Assembly (NCBI GenBank): GCA_963814475.1
Contig: CAWFDA010000046.1
Coordinates: forward strand, 666,940 to 730,939
Direction: 5' to 3'
DNA from: an uncultured Bacteroidota bacterium
Lineage (GTDB): Bacteria > Bacteroidota > Bacteroidia > AKYH767-A > OLB10
DNA length: 64,000 nucleotides
The position numbers and the translations under genes are program-made. Shown piece after piece: positions 1,190-44,460 of the stretch; the first letter of the stretch is position 1; each line of letters starts with the position of its first letter. The notes under the pieces are model-generated. The model ran no database searches. It worked only from the letters and a program-made list of their open reading frames with translations, and was not told the origin of the DNA.

Positions 1190-2290
1190 ATACACATCCC
1201 TGCAAGCTGCAGGCAGGCTCGTCCCAAGCCACAGGCCTGCGCGACAGACGAGTACGATAAAAAGGAGGTCCATTTAAAATATAAAGTTTACACATACTCG
1301 TCCCACGCCTTATGGCCAGCGCTTCAGACGAGTACGATGAAAGGGTACGATAAAAAGAAGATCCATCTAAAATATAAAGTTTACACATACTCGTCCCACA
1401 CCTTATGGCCAGCGCTTCAGACGAGTACGATGAAAAGAAGATCCATCTAAAATATAAAGTTAACACATACTCGTCCCACGCTTTATGGCCAGCGCTTCAG
1501 ACGAGTACGATGAAAGGGTACGATAAAAAGAAGATCCATCTAAAATATAAAGTTTACACATACTCGTCCCACGCCTTATGGCCAGCGCTTCAGACGAGTA
1601 CGATGAAAGGGTACGATAAAAAGAAGATCCATCTAAAATATAAAGTTTACACATACTCGTCCCACACCTTATGGCCAGCGCTTCAGACGAGTACGATGAA
1701 AAGAAGATCCATCTAAAATATAAAGTTTACACATACTCGTCCCACGCCTTATGGCCAGCGCTTCAGACGAGTACGATGAAAGGGTACGATAAAAAGAAGA
1801 TCCATCTAAAATATAAAGTTTACACATACTCGTCCCACACCTTATGGCCAGCGCTTCAGACGAGTACGATGAAAGGGTACGATAAAAAGAAGATCCATCT
1901 AAAATATAAAGTTTACACATACTCGTCCCACACCTTATGGCCAGCGCTTCAGACGAGTACGATGAAAAGAAGATCCATCTAAAATATAAAGTTTACACAT
2001 ACTCGTCCCACGCCTTATGGCCAGCGCTTCAGACGAGTACGATGAAAGGGTACGATGAAAAGAAGGTCCATTTAAAATATAAAGTTAACACATACTCGTC
2101 CCACGCCTTATGGCCAGCGCTTCAGACGAGTACGATGAAAGGGCTCGTCCCACGCCTTATGGCCAGCGCGTCAGACGAGTACGATAAAAAGGGTCCTTCT
2201 AAAATATAATGTTTAACACATACCTGCCTGCAGCAGGCAGGCTCGTCCCACGCCTTATGGCCGGCGCGTCAGACGAGTACGATAAAAGTG
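1190..2290. repeat. Tandem array of about 13 copies of a 77-94 bp unit. Each unit has a ~40 bp hairpin core (CTCGTCCCACGCCTTATGGCCAGCGCTTCAGACGAGTACGAT) plus an A-rich linker. The array is capped at both ends by a short palindrome (CCTGC..GCAGG).
   Basis: CTCGTCCCA recurs at ~1218, 1298, 1388, 1468, 1562, 1656, 1736, 1827, 1921, 2001, 2097, 2143 and 2241. Long and short unit variants differ by a 14 nt indel. The stem is ACTCGTC/GACGAGT. Confidence 0.9.
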
Positions 2291-3312: not shown

Positions 3313-4509
3313 TTACTTCTTCAAAACTTCTGCAACCAGATCTGCAGCTTCTTTAAGTTGAATTGCAGAAAACACCTTCAATCCTGATTCATCAATAATT
3401 TTTTTTGCTTCCACTGCATTGGTTCCTTGAAGACGAACAATGATAGGAACATGAATTTCACCAATGCTTTTGTAAGCATCAACAATACCCTGAGCAACAC
3501 GATCGCAACGAACAATTCCACCAAAAATATTCACCAAAATAGCTTTTACATTCGGGTCTTTAAGAATGATACGGAAGGCTTGTTCCACTCTTGCAGCATT
3601 GGCAGTACCACCAACATCTAGAAAGTTAGCAGGTTCACCACCTGCAAGTTTAATAATATCCATGGTAGCCATTGCAAGACCTGCACCATTTACCATACAA
3701 CCAACATTACCATCGAGTTTCACATAATTCAGATTATGTTCACCTGCTTCAACTTCAGTAGGATCTTCTTCGGAAATATCACGCATATCTGCGATAATCA
3801 GTATGACGATAAAGAGCATTTTCATCGAAATTCACTTTTGCATCAACAGCAATAATTTTATCGTCGGAAGTTTTTAGAACAGGATTAATTTCAAACATCG
3901 ATGCATCGATAGAATCGTAGGCTTTATAAAGAGTGGCAACAAATTTTGTCATTTCTTTAAATGCATTGCCACTTAGTCCTAGGTTAAAAGCAATTTTTCT
4001 GGCTTGGAAAGGCATGCAAACCAGAGAGTGGATCGATTTCTTCTTTAAAAATCAAATGAGGTGTTTTTTCAGCCACTTCTTCAATATCCATTCCACCTTC
4101 AGTAGAATACATGATTATATTTCTACCGGTTTGACGATTCAAAAGAACACTCATATAAAATTCAGAAGTTTCGGATAGGACCGGGATAATAAACATCTTG
4201 AGCAATCAGCACTTTATTCACTTTTTTACCTTGTGGGCCAGTTTGAGGAGTAACCAATTGCATACCTATGATATCAGTAGCCTTTGCTTTCACATCATCT
4301 AAACTTTTCGCCAATTTAACTCCACCACCTTTACCTCTACCACCGGCATGAATTTGAGCTTTTACCACCCACCAGGAAGTACCAGTTTGTTTCTGCAATT
4401 CTATAGCTGCTTCAACTGCTTGCTCCGGTGTTTCGGCAACAATTCCTTCTTGTATAGCCAACCCAAAACTTTTCAAAATTGATTTGCCCTGATATTCGTG
4501 AATATTCAT
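3313..4509 (-). pseudogene. sucC: Succinate--CoA ligase beta subunit (SucC), broken into 4 ORF fragments by frameshifts.
   Basis: Four consecutive minus-strand ORFs (4162-4509, 3984-4205, 3779-4015, 3313-3825) together reconstruct SucC: the N-terminal MNIHEYQGK... motif through the CoA-ligase domain ...GGIVRCD.... Confidence 0.8.
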
Positions 4510-8984: not shown

Positions 8985-9029
8985 TTTTTTAGGTTTTTAG
9001 TTTGTTCTTTTTAAGGATTGTTTGAAATA

Positions 9030-9470
9030 GTGGCAAGTGTTAAGTGACATGTGACAAGTGTTTAGTGACATGTGTTTAGTGACAAGTGTTTAGTGACAAG
9101 TGACAAGTGTTTAGTGACAAGTATTCAGTGACCAGTATTCAGTGACCAGTATTTCAGTGACCAGTGTTCAGTGACCAGTGTTTTAGTGACCAGTGTTTTG
9201 GTGACCAGTGTTTTAGTGACCAGTGTTACCAGTGTTTTAGTGACCAGTGTTTTGGTGACCAGTGTTTTAGTGACCAGTGTTTTGGTGACCAGTGATTAGT
9301 AACCAGTGTTCAGTGACCAGTATTTTAGTGACCCGGGTTAGTGAACAGGATTTTAGTGACCAGTGTTCAGTATTTAATATTTAATGACCGGAATATATGA
9401 CTAATGGCTAATCTAATTAATGACCCAATGACTAATGACCCAATGACTAATGTCTAATAACAAATTAACC
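9030..9470. repeat. Minisatellite with a ~16 bp unit (GTGACCAGTGTTTTAG) in about 20 copies, followed by AATGACCCAATGACTAATGAC heptad-type repeats.
   Basis: Direct tandem repetition is visible across 9040-9360. ATGACTA / ATGACCC units span 9400-9465. Confidence 0.85.
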
Positions 9471-19327: not shown

Positions 19328-20212
19328 CTATGAAACAGAAACTTTTCCAAGCACCTTTGCCATAGTTTGACCAATGATTGCCGGAGAATCCACTACAGTA
19401 ATTCCACATTCACGCATAATTTGCATTTTAGCTGCTGCAGTATCTTCCACACCACCAACAATAGCACCGGCATGGCCCATACGACGTCCGGGAGGAGCAG
19501 TTTGTCCTGCGATAAAACCAACAACAGGTTTACGATTATTATCTTTAATCCATCGTGCAGCATCCGCTTCCAAGCTTCCACCAATTTCACCAATCATGAT
19601 GATACCTTCTGTCTCGGGATCATCCATAAAAAGCTGAACGGCTTCGAGAGTGGTTGTTCCAATGATGGGATCACCACCAATTCCTATGGCGGTAGATACT
19701 CCAAGTCCTGCTTTCACAACTTGATCGGCAGCTTCATAAGTTAAAGTTCCCGACTTAGAAACGATTCCAATTTTTCCTTTTTTGAAAACAAAACCGGGCA
19801 TGATACCTACTTTTGCTTCATTAGGAGTAATTACACCGGGACAATTAGGGCCAATTAAGCGTGTTTTACGACTTTTCAGATACTCCTTCACCATAATCAT
19901 GTCTTTGGTAGGAATTCCTTCAGTAATACACACAACAAGACCTATTCCGGCCTCTGCAGCTTCCATAATCGCATCAGCAGCGAACGGAGGAGGAACAAAG
20001 ATAATAGAAACATTGGCGCCTGCTTTTTGAACGGCTTCGGAAACGGTATTAAAAACAGGTTTATCGAGATGGGTTGTACCACCTTTTCCGGGAGTCACCC
20101 CTCCTATTACATTGGTTCCATACTCAATCATTTGAGTAGCGTGAAAGGTACCTTCGTTTCCGGTAAAACCTTGGACAACGATTTTAGAATTTTTGTTGAC
20201 TAATACGCTCAT
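19328..20212 (-). CDS. sucD: Succinate--CoA ligase alpha subunit.
   Basis: 294 aa with the CoA-binding N-terminus and the phospho-His loop ...GHAGAIV.... Confidence 0.9.
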
Positions 20213-20440
20213 AGCGGGATTTTAGACTTTTGAATGATAGATGATGCAATTTGAAAGCTTGTTGAACCAAGCTTTAGTTGTTGTATTTTATTGGATTAAG
20301 TAATTGATATTTAATCATTTACTTATTTTCACACATTAACTTGCGGCAAAGTTAGGATATTTGATGAAAAAGAAGCGATAAAAATGTAATTGCTTTGATT
20401 TTCGGGATATTGGGTGGGATGCGGTAACTTTGCGGATCAC

Positions 20441-21778
20441 ATGCAAAGAGCAAAACAAGGAACCACCATTACTGCCATCGCAACACCTCCCGGGATGGGC
20501 GCAATTGCGGTGATACGAATTTCCGGTCCGGAAGCATTTAGAATTATTGATTTAGTTTTTCATTCCAAAGGGAAAAAGCCAAGCGAAAGTTTAACTCATT
20601 CTGCCTTGTTTGGAATTATTAAAGATGAACAGAAAGTAATTGATGAAGTACTAATCACAATTTTTCGCGGACCAAAGTCGTTCACCGGTGAAGATACCAT
20701 TGAAATTTCCTGTCATGGTTCCACTTTTATACAAAAAGAAATTCTTCAACTTCTAATCAAAAGTGGTGCTACACCGGCCCAACCCGGTGAATTTACCATG
20801 CGTGCATTTTTAAATAGAAAAATGGATCTTGTTCAAGCAGAAGCAGTAGGTGATTTAATAGCTGCTGATTCGGCATCATCACACCGAGTGGCGTTGAAAC
20901 AAATGCGAGGAGGATTCTCTAAGGAAATTCAGCTATTGAGAGAACGGTTAATTCACTTTGCATCATTGTTGGAGTTGGAACTCGATTTCTCGGAAGAAGA
21001 CGTAGAATTTGCCGATCGTTCACAATTGATTTCATTAATAAAAGAAACCATTGAACACACAAAAAAATTATCGGCTTCGTTTGAAACGGGAAATGTGATA
21101 AAGAGGGGAATTCCTGTTGCTATTGCAGGCAAACCAAATGTTGGCAAATCAACTTTGTTGAATTTAATTTTGAATGAAGACAGAGCTATTGTGAGTGACA
21201 TTGCCGGCACCACACGCGATACCATTGAGGAAGAGATAAACCTTGGCGGGATGAAGTTCCGGTTTATTGATACCGCGGGAATACGAAAGTCAGATGATTT
21301 AGTGGAACAAATTGGTGTTGAAAAAACATTGGAGAAAATAAAAGAAGCTTCAGTAATAATTTACTTATTCGATCCAGGTGAAACGGGTCCCGATGATTTA
21401 CAGGAAATACTGAATAAAATTATTGAATCACGTTCGGGTGAAAAATATGTTTTGATACCGGTTGCAAATAAATCGGATCGTTATAACGGATCCTATTTGC
21501 AGGATCTTTTTTCCACAGTTCCTGATGTTGTTTTCATATCGGCAAAAGAACATTCGGGAATCAACGAACTTTTTACGAGAATCACCTCCGTCATCACCGA
21601 AAGTAAAATCGATTCGGGAGACATCATCTTAACCAATGCACGCCACAAAGTATCTATTGATAAAACAACCACTGCATTGGAAAATTCTCTCGATGGTTTA
21701 TCGTCGGGGTTAGCAACAGATTTAATTGCAATTGAAATACGTTCTTCGCTAATGTACTTGGTGAAATCACTGGACTGA
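20441..21778 (+). CDS. mnmE: tRNA modification GTPase MnmE (TrmE).
   Basis: [18 protein letters not shown]-terminal domain and the [13 protein letters not shown]1 motif. The ORF may start at a GTG at 20414. Confidence 0.85.
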
Positions 21779-22256
21779 TTACAACGGATGATTTGTTGGA
21801 GAATATATTTAGTAAGTTTTGTATTGGAAAGTAATTCTTCAGAAGTTCATCAATCTGATCATTCAAGGTATTCATTTCCGGTAAGAGAAATAAAGGGAGT
21901 ACGATCATTTCCTGTTTCAACACAAGACTTTTCATCAATAAAAACACATCAAATCATTATTAATCATCAATTTACCCTAAATACTTGGTAAAGCTATAAC
22001 TTTACTTTATGGGCAAGAAATCACTTCAATTGCAACAGCTCAACAGCAAAATTTTAAGCTATGCCACGGAAAAGCATACCTCAAAGCCGTTAAAATGCCG
22101 TCAATAATTTTAATGTGGAATATAATATTTAGTTAACTTTTATTTATATTTAAATACACTAAATTAATTGGTATTTTCGTTGTGATAAACTAATTGAGCT
22201 GAAAAAGGTGATAATAATCATTGCTTCCATAACAATTGAATTAAATATTACCAAGC

Positions 22257-24027: not shown

Positions 24028-24152
24028 ATTAACTGAATTTGATCGGAATACTATATAATTATAGTAAAGTTAATCAAAAACTTGAAATTACTCATTTTTT
24101 TCTATTTTTGTAATGCAATTTTTTCATTTTCATTTTTTTATCAATTTTTCAC

Positions 24153-24676
24153 ATGCAATTACAACACATTACCACAAAAATTCACGAAATCAGAGGCATG
24201 AAGGTCATGCTCGATCATGATTTGGCAATTCTTTATGAAGTAGAAACAAGGTCGCTTAAGCAGGCTGTGAGAAGAAATTCAGATCGCTTTCCTGAAGATA
24301 TTATGTTTCAACTAACTGAACTAGAAATCGATAGAATGGTATCACAAAATGTGATACCATCTAAAAGCTATTTTGGAGGAGCCAAACCATTTGCTTTCAC
24401 TCAAGAAGGAATTTCAATGCTTTCGAGTGTTTTAAGAAGCAAAAAAGCTATACTCACAAACATTTCTATCATGCGCCTGCCTGCAGCATGGCAGGTGCAT
24501 TTGTAATGATGCGCCAATTTGCACTTTCACATCGCGAATTAACTGAAAAACTCAAGGAAATGGAAACCAAATACGATCAGCATTTTCATACTATCTACGA
24601 AGCTAATGGCTATCTTATGAAAAACGATGAGGAGGACAAGAAACAAAAGAACCGCCGAAGGATTGGGTATAAATGA
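24153..24676 (+). pseudogene. ORF6N-domain protein, copy 1, disrupted by a 20 bp palindromic insertion at 24476-24495.
   Basis: The N-terminus ([13 protein letters not shown]...[11 protein letters not shown]) is 80-90% identical to copy 2. The frame breaks at SIMR|, and the tail ([35 protein letters not shown]) resumes in another frame. Confidence 0.8.
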
Positions 24677-24714
24677 CCAAAATAAAATAATTTAACTTTT
24701 AAAACATTTTTCAC

Positions 24715-25188
24715 ATGCAATTACAACACATCACCACCAAAATTCACGAAATCAGGGGCATGAAGGTCATGCTGGACTATGATCTGGCTGAAATGTATCA
24801 AGTCCCAACAAAAAGTCTCAATCTTAGTGTTAAACGGAATCTAAATCGATTTCCGGATGATTTTATGTTCCAACTTTCTCAAACTGAATGGCAAAGTTTG
24901 AGGTTTCAAAATGAAACCTCAAACAAACGGGGAGGTTCGAGGTATGTGCCATATGCATTTACAGAACAGGGTTTAGCCATGCTTAGTGGGATATTAAATT
25001 CTCCCATTGCTATCGAAGTAAATATCTCCATCATGCGGGCTTTTGTATTCATGCGACAATTTGCTCTTTCTCATCGTGAGTTAACGGAAAAACTCAAGGA
25101 AATGGAAACCAAATACGATCAGCATTTTCATACTATCTACGAAGCTATTGACTATCTTATAAAAAACGATGAGATGGACAAGAAATAA
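24715..25188 (+). CDS. ORF6N-domain protein, copy 2, intact tandem paralog.
   Basis: 157 aa with the full ORF6N N-domain and a conserved C-terminal helix region. Confidence 0.8.
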   Translation: MQLQHITTKIHEIRGMKVMLDYDLAEMYQVPTKSLNLSVKRNLNRFPDDFMFQLSQTEWQSLRFQNETSNKRGGSRYVPYAFTEQGLAMLSGILNSPIAIEVNISIMRAFVFMRQFALSHRELTEKLKEMETKYDQHFHTIYEAIDYLIKNDEMDKK

Positions 25189-28539: not shown

Positions 28540-28725
28540 TTAGAAAAATACATAAAAAAAGGGTCATTGGTCGTTGTCGGTGCGGAAGGGTCATTGAGTC
28601 ATTGGTCATTAGTCTTTGTCGGTGCGGAAGGGTCATTGAGTCATTGGTCGTTAAGTTTGGCGGAAGAGTCATTGGGTCGTTTTAATTGGCGGAAGGGTCA
28701 TTGAGTCATTGCTCTGATAAAAAAA
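28540..28725. repeat. Tandem ~57 bp repeats built from GGGTCATTGAGTCATTGGTC-type units (AGTCATT heptad family).
   Basis: GTCGGTGCGGAAGGGTCATTGAGTCATTGGTC occurs twice, followed by degenerate copies. The same heptad is seen at 9400-9465 in reverse complement and at 35820-35870. Confidence 0.8.
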
Positions 28726-29161: not shown

Positions 29162-30313
29162 TTACAATGTCCCTCGGCGGGCTTGTTCTGCTTCGATGGA
29201 TTCAAACAAAGCTTTAAAGTTTCCTTTCCCGAAGGACTTTGCTCCTTTGCGTTGAATAATTTCAAAGAATAATGTGGGACGATCTTCAACCGGTTTAGTA
29301 AATATTTGTAATAGGTATCCTTCTTCATCACGGTCTACCATAATTCCGAGTTTTTTCAACACTTCCATATCTTCTTCAATGATTCCTACTCTTTCAGCAA
29401 CGGTATCATAGTAGGAACCGGGAACGTAGAGAAATTCTACCCCTCGTTTGCGCATTTCAGCAATAGTTAAAACAATATTATTAGTTGCAACAGCTATATG
29501 TTGACAACCGGGTCCCTTATAAAAATCCAGATATTCTTCGATCTGAGATTTCTTTTTGCCATAGGCAGGTTCATTTATTGGAAATTTGATTCGTCCGTTA
29601 CCATTCGACATCACCTTACTCATAAGCGCAGTGTATTCAGTGGAAATATCTTTGTCATCAAAGGTAACCAAGTTGGCGAATCCCATTATTTCTTCATAGA
29701 ATTTTGCCCATTTGTTCATTCCTCCAAGTTCAACATTACCCACCATGTGATCAACATATTCGAGTCCGGCCGAAACGGGATTATATTCTGATTCCCACTT
29801 AACAAACCCGGGAAGAAAAACTCCATTGTAAGCTTAACGCTCTACAAAAATGTGAAGTGTTTCGCCATAGGTATGAATTCCCGACATCACCACTTTCCCA
29901 TTGTCATCTTCAATGGTTTTTGGTTCCATAAAAGGCTTTGCTCCTCTTTTAACTGTTTCATTAAAAGACTTAGTTGCATCATCCACCCACAAAGCAATAA
30001 CTTTAACACCATCGCCATGCAAACGAATGTGATGAGAAATTTCACTATCAGGATCCATTGGTGTAGTGAGAACAAGTCGAATTTTTCCTTGTTGCAGAAC
30101 ATATGAAGTACGATCACGACTACCGGTTTCTAATCCCCGATAAGCAAGTGATTGAAACCCAAAAGCTGTTTTGTAATAATGAGCTGCTTGCTTCGCATTG
30201 CCTACATACAATTCCACATAGTCGGTACCATTGATAGGCAAAAAATCTTGTGCTTTTTCAAACACTTTATCTCCGGAGTAGGAGTAATTTTGTACTGTTT
30301 TAAGATTGTCCAT
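29162..30313 (-). pseudogene. hppD: 4-hydroxyphenylpyruvate dioxygenase split into two ORFs by a frameshift near 29746-29834.
   Basis: The N-terminal half (29834-30313) and C-terminal half (29162-29746) are both typical VOC-fold HPPD sequences ending ...[16 protein letters not shown]. Confidence 0.75.
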
Positions 30314-34604: not shown

Positions 34605-34800
34605 CAAAAAGCTACCCGGCAACCTTTGGGCATGGTTATTCCTCAGGCGTGATGTTTCTCACATCCTCGTCCCAAACCACAGGCCAGCGCGTCAGAGGAC
34701 GAGAGTATGGGGCATGGTTATTCCTCAGGCGTGATGTTTCTCACATCCTCGTCCCAAACCACAGGCCAGCGCGTCAGACGAGGACGAGAGTATGGGGAAA
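34605..34800. repeat. Two tandem ~62 bp copies of a variant hairpin element (CTCGTCCCAAACCACAGGCCAGCGCGTCAGACGAG).
   Basis: The direct repeat GGCATGGTTATTCCTCAGGCGTGATGTTTCTCACATCCTCGTCCCAAACCACAGGCCAGCGCGTCAGA(C)GAGGACGAGAGTATGGGG occurs twice. Confidence 0.8.
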
Positions 34801-34899: not shown

Positions 34900-35352
34900 G
34901 TGTTAAATAAATTTGTGATGAAAAAGCATGAAAATATTTTTAACGAAAGTGTAGTTGCTTACGGCACTCATTCCAACAATTCTATTTATTCAATTATGGA
35001 TACCATCCGCAGTGGTATTGTTTTTTCAAAATTCAATAAAGTACTTAACAGCTTTCCTTTCAGTTTATCCGATTGGTCTTGGTTTTTAGGAATGTCGGAA
35101 CGCACTATGCAACGCTACCGCAAAGAGAAAAAAACCTTTGATAAACTGCAGTCTGAAAAAATTTTAAACATTTACATACTTTACAACCGCGGTGTGGAGG
35201 TATTTGGAGGTGCTGAAAATTTCAACACATGGCTCGATACTCCCAACACAGCTCTTGGAGGTGAAGTGCCCAAAAAACTTTTGGATAACAATTTCGGTAT
35301 AGAGTTTCTCAACGATACGTTAACGCGTATTGAGCATGGCGTTTCTGCATGA
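34900..35352 (+). CDS. Xre/MbcA/ParS-type antitoxin (DUF2384 toxin-binding domain).
   Basis: C-terminal WLDTPNTALGGEVPKKLL...LTRIEHGVSA signature. It overlaps the RES gene by 4 nt (ATGA). Confidence 0.7.
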   Translation: MLNKFVMKKHENIFNESVVAYGTHSNNSIYSIMDTIRSGIVFSKFNKVLNSFPFSLSDWSWFLGMSERTMQRYRKEKKTFDKLQSEKILNIYILYNRGVEVFGGAENFNTWLDTPNTALGGEVPKKLLDNNFGIEFLNDTLTRIEHGVSA

Positions 35353-35828
35353 TTGTATTCAGGTTATGTCGTGAAGTTTATAGCAGTGACCTGAATGGAA
35401 AAGGTGCTGAAAAAAGTGGAGGACGGTGGAACAGCAAGGGCATTCCTATGCTTTACACTTCTGAAACAAGAGCCTTGTGTCTGGCTGAAATGATGGTAAA
35501 TCTTCCATTAAATTTGATTCCTAAGGATTTCTCAATGGTTTCAATTTTGGTGCCGGATGAACTGCAGACACACACAATAAAAATCGAACAATTACCATCC
35601 GATTGGAAAATGTTTCCTCACTCCTATTCTACCCAGAAATTAGGAGATGATTTTATTAATGAAGGAAAATTTATTGCTCTCAAAGTACCCTCAGTAGTTG
35701 TGCCCTTAGAGTATAATGTCATAATCAACCCAAGACATACAGATATGGGAAAGGTGAAAATTATTGAAGTGAAAAAATTTTCAATTGATGAGCGACTAAT
35801 TGCGAAGAGTGGGGAAAAAAGTCATTGA
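35349..35828 (+). CDS. RES-domain toxin (MbcT/ParT-like NAD+-targeting toxin).
   Basis: GGRWNSKGIPMLYTSETRALCLAEMMV matches the RES N-terminal motif. The 159 aa ORF is translationally coupled to the antitoxin. Confidence 0.75.
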   Translation: MIVFRLCREVYSSDLNGKGAEKSGGRWNSKGIPMLYTSETRALCLAEMMVNLPLNLIPKDFSMVSILVPDELQTHTIKIEQLPSDWKMFPHSYSTQKLGDDFINEGKFIALKVPSVVVPLEYNVIINPRHTDMGKVKIIEVKKFSIDERLIAKSGEKSH

Positions 35829-35872
35829 GTCATTAAGTCATTGAGTCATTAAGTCATTGAACTTTGGTTAGG
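35820..35872. repeat. AGTCATTGAGTCATTAAGTCATT heptad repeat.
   Basis: The tandem (A/G)GTCATT units are visible directly. Confidence 0.8.
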
Positions 35873-35929: not shown

Positions 35930-36135
35930 TTTTATACTTTCAATTTTCAGTTTTCAATTCGCGTTGACAGCGGTAGAAGCATTATATTCGGGTCGAAGGG
36001 AAAACTGAAATTTGAAAACTGAAATTTGAAAAGTTTTGGTAGGTTGGGACAAAGTTAAAACTGAAAAGCAGGCCCGAATCTATAGAGGCGGGCCTGTCCG
36101 AATCTATAGAGGCGGGCTTGCCCGATAAAGAAGAC
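35930..36135. repeat. MITE-like element with TTTTCAGTTTTCAATT / AATTGAAAACTGAAA inverted termini, followed by a 2x direct repeat GCCCGAATCTATAGAGGCGGGC.
   Basis: TTCAATTTTCAGTTTTCAATTCGCG...GGGTCGAAGGGAAAACTGAAATTTGAAAACTGAAA. Related copies lie at 2290-2405 and 37260-37500. Confidence 0.7.
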
Positions 36136-42247: not shown

Positions 42248-43140
42248 TTATATTCTTTGCTCAGGTTTATATTTTGAGTCTTCAGCTTTTTCAATTTTTT
42301 CAAATGATGAGAGTACATCTGCTTTATTTTCTCCTATTGCAACGGTGTGTTCGAAGTGTGCGGAAGGTTTCAAATCTGTCGGTGTAACGATTGTCCATCC
42401 ATCATTCAGTTGTTTGACCTGCCTTTTTCCGGCGTTGATCATAGGTTCAATGGCTATTACCATTCCTGTTTTCAGGAGCATGCCAGTACCTTTTTTTCCG
42501 TAATTAGGAACTTCAGGTTTTTCGTGCAAGCTTCATTCCCAACTCCATGTCCAACCAATTCTCTCACTACTCCAAAGCCATTTGCTTCGGCATGATCCTG
42601 AACGGCTGCACTGATATCTCCAATCCTGCAACCTGACACTGAGCCTTTTCGATACCTATGTAAAAGGCATTCTTTGGTAACACGAATTAGATTTCGACGT
42701 TTCGGTGTTCACCTCTCCCACCGTGAATGTATACGCTGAATCTCCGAAGAAACCATCTTTTATCACACCACAATCGATAGAAACCACATCACCATCCTTT
42801 AGTTCGCGATTGCCCGGTATACCGTGTACCACTTCAGCATTGACTGAAATGCACAACGATCCGGGAAAACCACCATAGCCTTTAAAGGCAGGGATAGCTT
42901 TTTGATCTCTTATGAAGGTTTCCGCCAATGCATCAAGCTCGATGGTTTTCACACCGGGCTTAAGAATTGCGGCCACTTCCGCTAATGTATCTCCAACAAG
43001 TAAAGAACTAACTCTTATTAACTCTATTTCTTCGGGAGTTTTGTAGATAATCTGCAATTTGACTCCTTTGTTTTTATATTTTAATAATAGCAATAACCTA
43101 CTACCGGTGCCTTAAACTGCGGCTCCGACAGCAGATGCTC
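42248..43140 (-). pseudogene. map: Methionine aminopeptidase, type I, frameshifted.
   Basis: The N-terminal part (42656-43093) and C-terminal part (42248-42529) lie in different frames with a gap between them. Confidence 0.75.
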
Positions 43141-43151
43141 TGCCTTTGATT

Positions 43152-44460
43152 CTACCTGTTTTCATAAGATCCATCGTAATGACGCATCAGCAAATGACTT
43201 TCAATTTGCTGAAGCGTATCTAACACAACACCTACCAAAATCAGTAGTGAGGTTCCACCATAAAACTGTGCAAAGTTACTATTTACTCCGAAAAGTTTCG
43301 CAAATGTGGGTAAAATTGCCACAAACGCAAGGAATAATGAACCCGGTAAAGTAATTTTAGACATCACATCATCAATAAACTCAGCTGTTTTCTTACCGGG
43401 TTTAACACCGGGAATAAAACCTCCATTTTTCTTCATATCTTCAGCCATTTGATTAGGATTCACCGAAATAGCAGTATAGAAATAAGTAAAGAGGATAATC
43501 AATATTGCGAATGTAATGTTGTACCCAAAAGAGGTGAAATCAGTAAATGCACCTGCAAAACCTTGCCATGAAGCAGATTCAGGGAAAAACTGAGCGATGG
43601 TTGCCGGAATAAACATAATTGCCTGAGCAAAGATGATTGGCATTACACCTGCAGCATTAACTTTAAGAGGAATGTACTGACGAACGCCACCATATTGTTT
43701 ATTACCAACAATTTTTTTAGCAAACTGAACCGGTATTCTTCGGGTACCCTGAACCAAGAGAATTACAGCAGCCAACCACAGCAAAGAGGGCAACAATTTC
43801 AACCAGGAATACAACCAATCCACCACCTTCGTTCAAACGTGACAAGAACTCATCTCGTCAATGATTGAAGGAAGTCTGGCAATGATACCAATCATGATAA
43901 TGAAGTGATATACCATTTCCGATTCCTTTTTCAGTAATCCTCTCCCCTAACCACATTACAAATAATGTTCCTGCGGTAAGGATAAGAATGGAAGTAATCC
44001 AGAAACATGGTGCCATCCATGATGATTGCATTCAGGAGACTGTGAACGTAAATTCACAATATATCCGGGAGCCTGACCAAGAGTTACAAAACCGTAAGCC
44101 AACGGGTGATTTGATTCATTTTCTTACGACCACTTTCTCCTTCTTTCTGGAGTTTCTGGAAATAAGGAACAGCAATACCTAATAACTGCACCACAATGGA
44201 GGCAGAAATGTAAGGCATAATACCTAATGCAAAAATGGAAGCCTGCGAGAAGGCTCCTCCTGCAAACATATCAATCAATCCAAGAATTCCGCCTTCAGAC
44301 TGAGCTTGTAAATTAGCCAGTCCTGCAGGATCACACTCCGGGAAGCACAATATGTGCTCCGAGTCTGTAGATAACAATAAATCCCAAAGTGTTCAGGATT
44401 CTTGACTTTCAGATCTTCGATCTTAAAAATATTCCGAATTGTAGTTATTAGGTTCTTCAT
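43152..44460 (-). pseudogene. secY: Preprotein translocase SecY, fragmented by several frameshifts.
   Basis: ORFs 44275-44460, 44084-44377 and 43152-43826 carry SecY segments. The 43826-44084 stretch contains further out-of-frame pieces. Confidence 0.8.

Follow-up and report, generated by a model that had tools for sequence, protein, structure and literature searches.

The present study concerns a short palindrome in a 64,000-nt stretch of DNA from an uncultured Bacteroidota bacterium (contig CAWFDA010000046.1 of assembly GCA_963814475.1; hereafter the window). At positions 24476-24495, this palindrome interrupts the first of two tandem ORF6N genes. The analysis indicated that it is a copy of a widespread 19-nt palindromic unit, here termed P, which sites gain, and may also lose, with base precision. 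In our judgement, P is probably a non-autonomous micro-element that is moved in trans by an enzyme encoded at a non-adjacent locus.

Interruption of an ORF6N gene and its empty counterparts

The inserted sequence, CCTGCCTGCAGCATGGCAGG, lies between the second and third bases of the Arg codon in the SIMR|AFV motif of ORF6N copy 1, and its boundary is ambiguous by one base, with a G on either side (no strand is assigned to this or to the other palindromes described below). It consists of P, whose family unit is the 19-nt sequence CCTGCCTGC-W-GCAGGCAGG, and one extra T (CCTGCCTGCAGCA-T-GGCAGG, giving GCA-T-GGCAGG). The first-pass annotation, which had regarded the 20-nt palindrome as the unit, was correct about the palindrome but one base too long for the family. 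In a nucleotide alignment, copies 1 and 2 were collinear with a single 20-column gap at 24476-24495, and the same 20 columns formed a gap between copy 1 and its ortholog on the Logan contig L001. These results confirmed that the block is an insertion, since it is missing from the paralog, from the syntenic ortholog, and from the homologs that we read.

The insertion splits copy 1 into a 117-aa and a 62-aa open reading frame (ORF), exactly as had been annotated. The N-terminal fragment (24153-24506, plus strand; 117 aa) contains the whole ORF6N domain and ends in a P-encoded tail, LPAAWQVHL*. The C-terminal fragment (24488-24676, plus strand; 62 aa) is in the original frame, overlaps the first by 19 nt, and begins at an ATG that is made by the extra T within the insert; we infer that it may be expressed. 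As read from the sequence, the insert shifts the frame and breaks a motif that is conserved in all homologs read, and the N-terminal ORF is predicted to keep its DNA-binding ORF6N domain. When the 20 nt were removed, the product of copy 1 was 167 aa long and had a complete ORF6N domain (PF10543, 1.1e-29, residues 9-93), and copy 2 matched the same domain at 3.2e-34. The scores of 103 bits for repaired copy 1 and 117.5 bits for copy 2, against a gathering cut-off of 27.8, identified both as ORF6N-domain proteins.

The tandem paralog, copy 2 (24715-25188, plus strand), is continuous, and its empty site lies at about 25037/25038. It carries TAA where copy 1 and L001 have CAA and has lost the last 10 codons; the conserved C-terminal ...RRRIGYK is removed with them. 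Since copy 1 is split and copy 2 lacks its last 10 codons, neither paralog is intact. The 3' approximately 130 nt of the paralogs (window 24540-24680 region) are almost identical, and their 5' parts are about 65% identical, a pattern that suggests gene conversion between the two copies.

The insertion stands exactly at the centre of a 10-nt quasi-palindrome, ATGCG^TGCAT (24471-24475 and 24496-24500), and the filled site (24471-24500) is a 30-nt quasi-palindrome. The symmetric arms at this target measure 4 bp, a length that 2% of random sites reach. Folded as single-stranded DNA, the insert alone formed a 6-bp stem, and together with its flanks it formed an 11-bp stem of -11.3 kcal/mol.

To compare the interrupted gene with its relatives, we used the repaired copy 1 in a protein search, which returned thousands of ORF6N proteins. 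The best match, P0001, was 95% identical, 167 aa long and uninterrupted. All homologs read carried the form ...N(I/V)(S/A)(I/V)M(R/K)AFV... with the motif unbroken, and 119 of the 120 best hits were full-length proteins of about 150-190 aa. No 117-aa truncated protein was present among the top hits of this search, indicating that the filled allele is not in that protein collection. P0001 is encoded on L001 in the same neighbourhood as in the window, namely trmE, a protein with a type IX secretion system (T9SS) tail, and ORF6N. At the site, L001 reads ATCATGC|GTGCATTTG within an intact 167-aa gene, and the window reads ATCATGCG + CCTGCCTGCAGCATGGCAGG + TGCATTTG; no target bases are duplicated at ATCATGCG^TGCATTTG. 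L001 thus presents an empty site and not a longer in-frame variant of the gene. Between the window and L001, the ORF6N gene shows 95.4% identity but the adjoining sucD-trmE stretch only 80%, and for this reason we regard L001 as a fairly distant relative. The gene between the sucD-trmE stretch and ORF6N differs between the two (window 19482-21836 and 24085-24766 compared with L001), and an ORF6N cassette may have been exchanged horizontally. A metagenome scan able to detect filled or empty alleles of the ORF6N site gave 0 hits.

Filled and empty sites alone give no direction of change, and on that ground P could be ancestral in copy 1 and in its host repeats and have been precisely lost in L001 and elsewhere. 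We consider this very improbable. The conserved motif is unbroken in the paralog, in the ortholog and in every homolog read, and full-length proteins dominate the best hits; a coding motif that is conserved cannot have started out with a frameshifting segment of 19-20 nt inside it.

We also weighed whether the 20 nt are absent from the DNA of the organism and were introduced by sequencing or assembly. The window gives this idea some ground: sucC (3313-4509, minus strand) is broken into four ORF pieces of 115, 73, 78 and 170 aa, and an HPPD-like gene (29162-30313) and secY (42656-43826) are each in two pieces. Such single-base frameshifts in housekeeping genes look like the product of an error-prone (long-read) assembly and not like real pseudogenes. 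The idea also draws on the absence of the source genome from the public collections searched, where exact look-ups of window proteins gave no match. However, the errors seen are single-base indels and not 20-nt blocks. The block is also a known unit, present in assemblies from different assemblers and in cultured isolates, and elsewhere P interrupts otherwise continuous sequence and does not join unrelated pieces. An error cannot explain a 20-nt block that matches a widespread unit exactly, and we give an artefactual origin of the insertion next to no credence. The extra T is a different matter, since it may be an error in an assembly so rich in single-base frameshifts. An adaptor or vector origin was dropped, again on the ground that P interrupts continuous sequence; to our knowledge, P matches no sequencing adaptor or cloning-site sequence.

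P as a discrete unit in the window and across phyla

Two further copies were found in the window, both in a host tandem array (1218-2290, plus strand) of 80- and 93-nt units that contain the hairpin CTCGTCCCA...GACGAG, with a 266-nt super-period at 98% identity. An exact P (CCTGCCTGCAGCAGGCAGG) occupies 2223-2241, between 'acacata' and 'ctcgtccc' in the last array unit, where it forms a hairpin (8-bp stem, 3-nt loop) beside that of the host; its empty counterpart is at window position 2080. A diverged P (CCTGCAAGCTGCAGGCAGG, 1199-1217), with 2-3 mismatches, occupies the same junction in the first array unit. The inner units read acacata|ctcgtccc without a break, so that the junction is filled twice and empty about ten times, and P is present only in the two outermost units, which are the most diverged. 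Earlier annotation had assigned the ORF6N insert to the same sequence class as the palindromes of this array, and we found one exact 19-mer and one copy with 2-3 mismatches there, although the former starts at 2223 and not at 2221. The pattern CCTGCC-N5-10-GGCAGG occurred twice in the window compared with 0.01 expected, and none of 100 shuffles reached 2. The 19-mer with up to 3 mismatches occurred only at 1199-1217 and 2223-2241, with 0 expected. The hairpin repeat CTCGTCCCA-N-GACGAG is host-specific; besides the array of about 1.1 kb, it forms a two-unit 82-nt tandem and a single copy (34055, minus strand; 34628-34797), and it had no match in JGI metagenomes.

The first-pass annotation had further proposed that the palindrome is mobile, and this was supported by its gain or loss as a discrete unit at many sites. 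For each P copy, we looked for an empty site in the same or a related genome. A paralogous empty site was found for 21 of the 123 copies among the matches listed, in which the 14 + 14 flanking bases rejoined with at most 3 mismatches and in several cases with none. Because the flanks rejoin exactly in these 21 pairs, P behaves as an exact 19-nt insertion or deletion without target-site duplication. A mosaic was observed on the Gammaproteobacteria chromosome OZ251218.1, where six copies of one host repeat carry P in differing combinations at three sites (GGATTTC^TCAG, CACCTT^GCTTC and GGCAC(R)^TCCCTG), with both P orientations at the first. This host repeat (L013, L057, L069, L107, L110) is MITE-like (resembling miniature inverted-repeat transposable elements), about 170 nt long, and has three internal hairpins. 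The same chromosome also has Neisseria dRS3-like ATTCCC-N-GGGAAT repeats with P inserted in them. Where loci carried two or more copies, the spacing ranged from about 74 to 4,600 nt in mixed orientations, and close pairs were separate insertion sites inside a host repeat.

To determine how widely P occurs, we scanned one genome per species with the pattern CCTGCCTGCAGC-N1-2-GGCAGG. At least 120 stretches matched, and nearly all of them carried the 19-mer CCTGCCTGCAGCAGGCAGG without change, or its complement, in which the central base is T. By record title, exact P was present in at least about 75 assemblies of species-representative genomes from at least 16 phyla, including Pseudomonadota, Bacteroidota, Ignavibacteriota, Chlorobiota, Calditrichota, Latescibacterota, Desulfobacterota/Thermodesulfobacteriota, Planctomycetota (Brocadiaceae), Acidobacteriota, Nitrospirota, Chloroflexota, Armatimonadota, Elusimicrobiota, Bipolaricaulota, Thermotogota and Peribacteria. 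No cyanobacterial record was among the 120 matches listed. At least eight cultured isolates carried exact P, namely Robertkochia flava, R. marina, Algoriphagus taiwanensis, A. kandeliae, Belliella marina, Pedobacter vanadiisoli, Perlabentimonas gracilis and Rosettibacter primus. The names of P-bearing contigs were of SPAdes, MEGAHIT and long-read style, indicating different assemblers. Under uniform base composition, chance would give about 4 hits per 19-mer in 596 Gb. The 200-nt flanks of P clustered only within a genome or among close relatives; this clustering revealed no larger element common across phyla, and P itself was the longest shared sequence.

In single-stranded form, P adopts a hairpin with an 8-bp stem and a 3-nt loop (-8 kcal/mol). 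It contains a PstI site (CTGCAG), and the GC content of the window is 37%. At least 20 copies were present in the sampled parts of the 3.7-Mb chromosome OZ251218.1. We found 53 near-copies with uncompensated point changes, mostly in the loop, which indicated that copies decay after insertion, and the many exact copies pointed to recent spread. The P-encoded peptides LPAAGR, CLQQAG and PACSRQA recur in spurious ORFs. In a viral collection, P was present in 7 phage contigs, compared with 0, 0 and 0 for three palindromes of the same arm composition. One of the phage contigs, L126 (IMG/VR, 11.9 kb), carried 15 palindromes of the CCTGYCTG-loop-CAGRCAGG form, two of them exact copies of P and 13 P-like, and its phage genes were confirmed as an SU10-type portal and a large terminase. 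Phages are thus a plausible vehicle of P between hosts.

The literature text that we searched contained no match to the P sequence, its variants or its degenerate forms, and a BLAST search of plasmids with P as the query was uninformative, most of its matches being imperfect, due to chance and located in GC-rich Alphaproteobacteria. Three other identities were rejected: the footprint of an excised transposon, since the sequence of P is constant and not derived from the flanks; a dif, attC or inversion-type recombinase site, since length and architecture are wrong; and a fragment of 16S rRNA, since the resemblance covers only 7 nt.

Target sites and the proposed movement of P

Among the 120 copies listed, the base before P was T in only 8, and the base after P was C or T in 103; positions -8 to -2 and +2 to +8 showed no conserved base. 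Host secondary structure was also associated with the sites. A host stem of at least 6 bp lay within 8 nt of P for 22% of copies compared with 2.5% of random positions, and a palindrome whose arms measured at least 6 bp was centred exactly on P in 6.7% compared with 0.16%. After deletion of P, the sites folded more stably than random ones (-7.4 compared with -5.7 kcal/mol, p = 2e-5). In Robertkochia (L005), P was nested in a GGTACGA heptamer array.

Copies were rare in long ORFs. Only 9 of 91 copies (10%) lay in long ORFs, defined as stop-free for at least 60 codons on both sides, compared with 60% of random positions. The resolved genic copies were in four types of insertion sequence (IS) transposase gene and in ORF6N copy 1, all of them dispensable genes. 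Deletion of P restored a long ORF encoding an IS transposase in each of the four types: DDE_3 (IS630 type; L002, hit twice), DDE_Tnp_1_4 (L054; 8.8e-136 across the junction), Transposase_mut (Mutator-type; L055) and DDE_Tnp_1_6 (L068). The positions of P in these genes are L002 6490 and 6964, L054 690, L055 1869, 2252 and 2382, and L068 6465; the genes belong to Gammaproteobacteria, Latescibacterota and Bacteroidota, and some are interrupted several times. One L002 copy replaces the first catalytic Asp codon, and there the frame stays open, with 19 nt gained and one G lost. The earlier statement that the palindrome can inactivate genes was supported by the frameshifted ORF6N gene, and also by four IS transposase genes interrupted in other phyla. 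The depletion from ORFs, the copies in IS genes and the accessory, multi-copy nature of the ORF6N family together fit near-random insertion followed by purging from essential genes.

These results also bear on whether P is removed or bypassed at the level of RNA or translation, as a mini-intron or a programmed frameshift that would make ORF6N copy 1 whole. The block and its flanks form a strong hairpin, and with overlapping ORF fragments some coupled expression is conceivable. Nevertheless, P is six-fold depleted from long ORFs, its resolved genic copies are in dispensable IS genes, and no Rfam family matched it, so that we regard such a rescue as extremely unlikely.

Regarding the mechanism, we propose that P is mobilised as a hairpin or a short duplex, in trans, by an enzyme encoded away from it, and our leading guess for the mover is a single-strand DNA transposase that recognises hairpins. 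Insertion would prefer a purine^pyrimidine step in hairpin-prone DNA. Copies would last only where they are harmless, namely within other repeats, IS transposase genes or accessory multi-copy genes like ORF6N, and would then decay by point mutation. The extra T of the ORF6N copy would represent either such decay or a base-calling error.

Several observations weigh against movement by a dedicated enzyme or limit how far it can be argued. We found no candidate enzyme when 3,075 ORFs from 120 P loci of up to 8 kb were clustered all against all; the protein families shared among these loci, none of them by more than 8 of the 120, were generic (ABC ATPases, T9SS-tail proteins, kinases, FeoB, RND pumps and IF-2), and no RAYT was found in the same loci. 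No gene was flanked by P, and the genes between paired copies did not include a transposase-like cassette. The 120 copies listed showed no conserved target tetranucleotide of the kind used by IS200/IS605-type transposases. The association with hairpins is a tendency that concerns only about a quarter of the sites, and insertion points fell into structural classes (loop, stem edge, within a stem or outside) in the same way as random positions. Hairpins abutting P, on 7 of 238 sides compared with 1.3% per side in controls, were barely enriched and showed no polarity. The orientation of 20 copies on OZ251218.1 followed neither chromosome position nor local GC skew, giving no replichore or strand pattern. 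At the ORF6N locus itself, the comparison offers one empty ortholog, which is fairly distant, and no strain-level polymorphism, and the many single-base frameshifts in the window assembly make the length of the insert (20 or 19 nt) uncertain. Moreover, host repeats that bear P can themselves multiply, so that copies outnumber independent insertions, and the genome scan gives a census of lower bounds (at least 120 stretches), with whole genomes lying outside it.

Some of the same evidence agrees with a process that needs no dedicated enzyme, in which template switching or short-patch gene conversion copies P at hairpin-forming DNA and polymerase bypass deletes it. No protein is linked to P or shared among its loci, its sites are enriched in hairpin-prone repeats, and one repeat family of OZ251218.1 shows a mosaic of sites with and without it. 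The nearly identical 3' halves of the ORF6N paralogs also indicate that conversion is active at that locus. On the other hand, neither filled nor empty sites have microhomology with P by which a switch could be guided, and the boundaries of P are base-exact at unrelated sites. Copying within a genome also cannot start the occurrence of the same 19 nt between unrelated flanks in at least 16 phyla. We therefore hold this explanation to be rather unlikely, although enzymatic transposition and template-switch copying, both of which the first-pass annotation had allowed, remain readings of how P moves.

Beyond movement in trans by a dedicated enzyme, P may tentatively be seen as an undescribed class of mobile DNA, and we put this forward as a possibility of limited probability. 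Such a class would be a bare 19-nt hairpin, lacking coding capacity, terminal repeats and target duplication, that spreads between phyla, possibly by phages, and within genomes, by an unknown but widespread hairpin-handling enzyme or by universal replication or repair machinery. Mobile DNA normally encodes a transposase or derives from an element that does, whereas P is a 19-base hairpin that behaves as an insertion unit. Gammaproteobacteria, Bacteroidota, Chloroflexota and candidate phyla carry it with the same sequence, it breaks genes, and the breadth of this 19-nt element across phyla appears not to have been described before. If this proposal is true, P would be the smallest element known to spread horizontally and would move the lower size limit of such elements downwards. 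It would also point to a widespread activity that inserts hairpins without target duplication and could serve as a tool, and would account for one class of the short frameshifting 'indels' and contig breaks met with in metagenome-assembled genomes. A direct test is possible, since several cultured isolates carry exact P.

Further repeats of the window and comparison with known small elements

The window contains other repeats. Intergenic heptamer- or octamer-like tandem arrays (AGTGACC/AGTGTTT; GGTCATTGAGTCATT) were observed at 9029-9452, 28562-28711 and 35819-35860, and are reminiscent of the cyanobacterial short tandem repeats that host small dispersed repeats (SDRs). A dispersed inverted structure with ttttcaattttcag / gaaaactgaaatttgaaaa arms and a 24-nt tandem of GCCCGAATCTATAGAGGCGGGCCT in two copies were present at 2290-2400, 35930-36035 and 36072-36125. 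Two overlapping small ORFs of 144 and 159 aa (34918-35828) are flanked by window repeat families; by eye only, we take them to resemble an Xre-type antitoxin and a RES-toxin. No tRNA gene and no Rfam family was detected at threshold anywhere in the 64 kb, despite a large ribosomal-protein operon at about 40.5-57 kb.

To place P among known small elements, we compared it with five groups. The SDR4-6 repeats of Nostocaceae were reportedly described by Elhai and colleagues as 'very small mobile repeated elements'. SDRs are about 20-27 nt long and non-coding, and are found between genes, in genes and nested in repeats that include tandem heptamers; their mover is unknown. For the Nostoc SDRs, one paper gives a length of 21-27 nt, describes them as nested in repeats and genes and as inserting, in the case of SDR5, into the HIP1 palindrome, and reports them only in Nostocaceae (PMC5861425). 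In behaviour, these repeats are the nearest analogue of P. Like SDRs, P is nested in host repeats, in heptamer arrays (L005), in genes and at the centres of palindromes, and at 19 nt it is slightly shorter. Unlike SDRs, which are reported only from Nostocaceae, P is identical in at least 16 phyla and is a near-perfect palindrome.

REP and REPIN sequences are short GC-rich palindromes that are mostly intergenic and non-autonomous and are thought to move as single-strand hairpins, by means of a RAYT (Y1/HUH) enzyme whose single-copy gene lies elsewhere in the genome (PMC3337134). REPINs are described as inverted doublets with a spacer, lineage-specific and mostly inherited vertically. The cognate RAYT gene usually has its REPs on either side. 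P resembles them as a short imperfect palindrome of high copy number that is mostly extragenic. It differs from REPs in that its hairpin foot lacks a conserved tag of the GTAG kind, with only positions -1 (not T) and +1 (C or T) biased, and from REPINs in being a single 19-nt hairpin without regularly spaced inverted doublets. The lineage-specificity of both is likewise at odds with the identical P found between unrelated flanks in at least 16 phyla.

The GC clusters of yeast mitochondria are GC-rich hairpins in AT-rich DNA, sporadic between strains and sometimes merged or nested, whose mover is unknown; one of them, GC42, is 42 nt long and has flanking direct repeats (PMC4478555). Like these clusters and the PstI palindromes of Neurospora mitochondria, P is a GC hairpin in AT-rich DNA and has a PstI site. 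These elements, however, are organellar, and GC42 is accompanied by direct repeats, whereas P is bacterial, crosses phyla and is without flanking duplication.

Elements of the IS200/IS605 type generate no target-site duplication and are recognised by means of hairpins. P shares the lack of a target-site duplication and the hairpin nature. These elements insert 3' of a fixed tetra- or pentanucleotide, whereas the base composition at -5 to -2 of P is flat, with only an R^Y bias. They also have distinct left and right ends, whereas the hairpin is the entire P element.

Rickettsia palindromic elements (RPEs) and classical MITEs (e.g. Correia) are 100-150 nt long or longer, and RPEs are kept in frame in proteins. 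MITEs have terminal inverted repeats and target duplications and typically exceed 50 nt. P resembles both as a palindromic, non-coding repeat that is able to land in genes. Unlike RPEs, P is 19 nt long, always frameshifting and purged from genes; unlike MITEs, it is only 19 nt long and shows 21 filled/empty pairs without duplicated bases. Collectively, the comparison indicated that P fails the defining features of the REP, MITE and IS200-type families and is best placed with the 'very small mobile repeat' kind.

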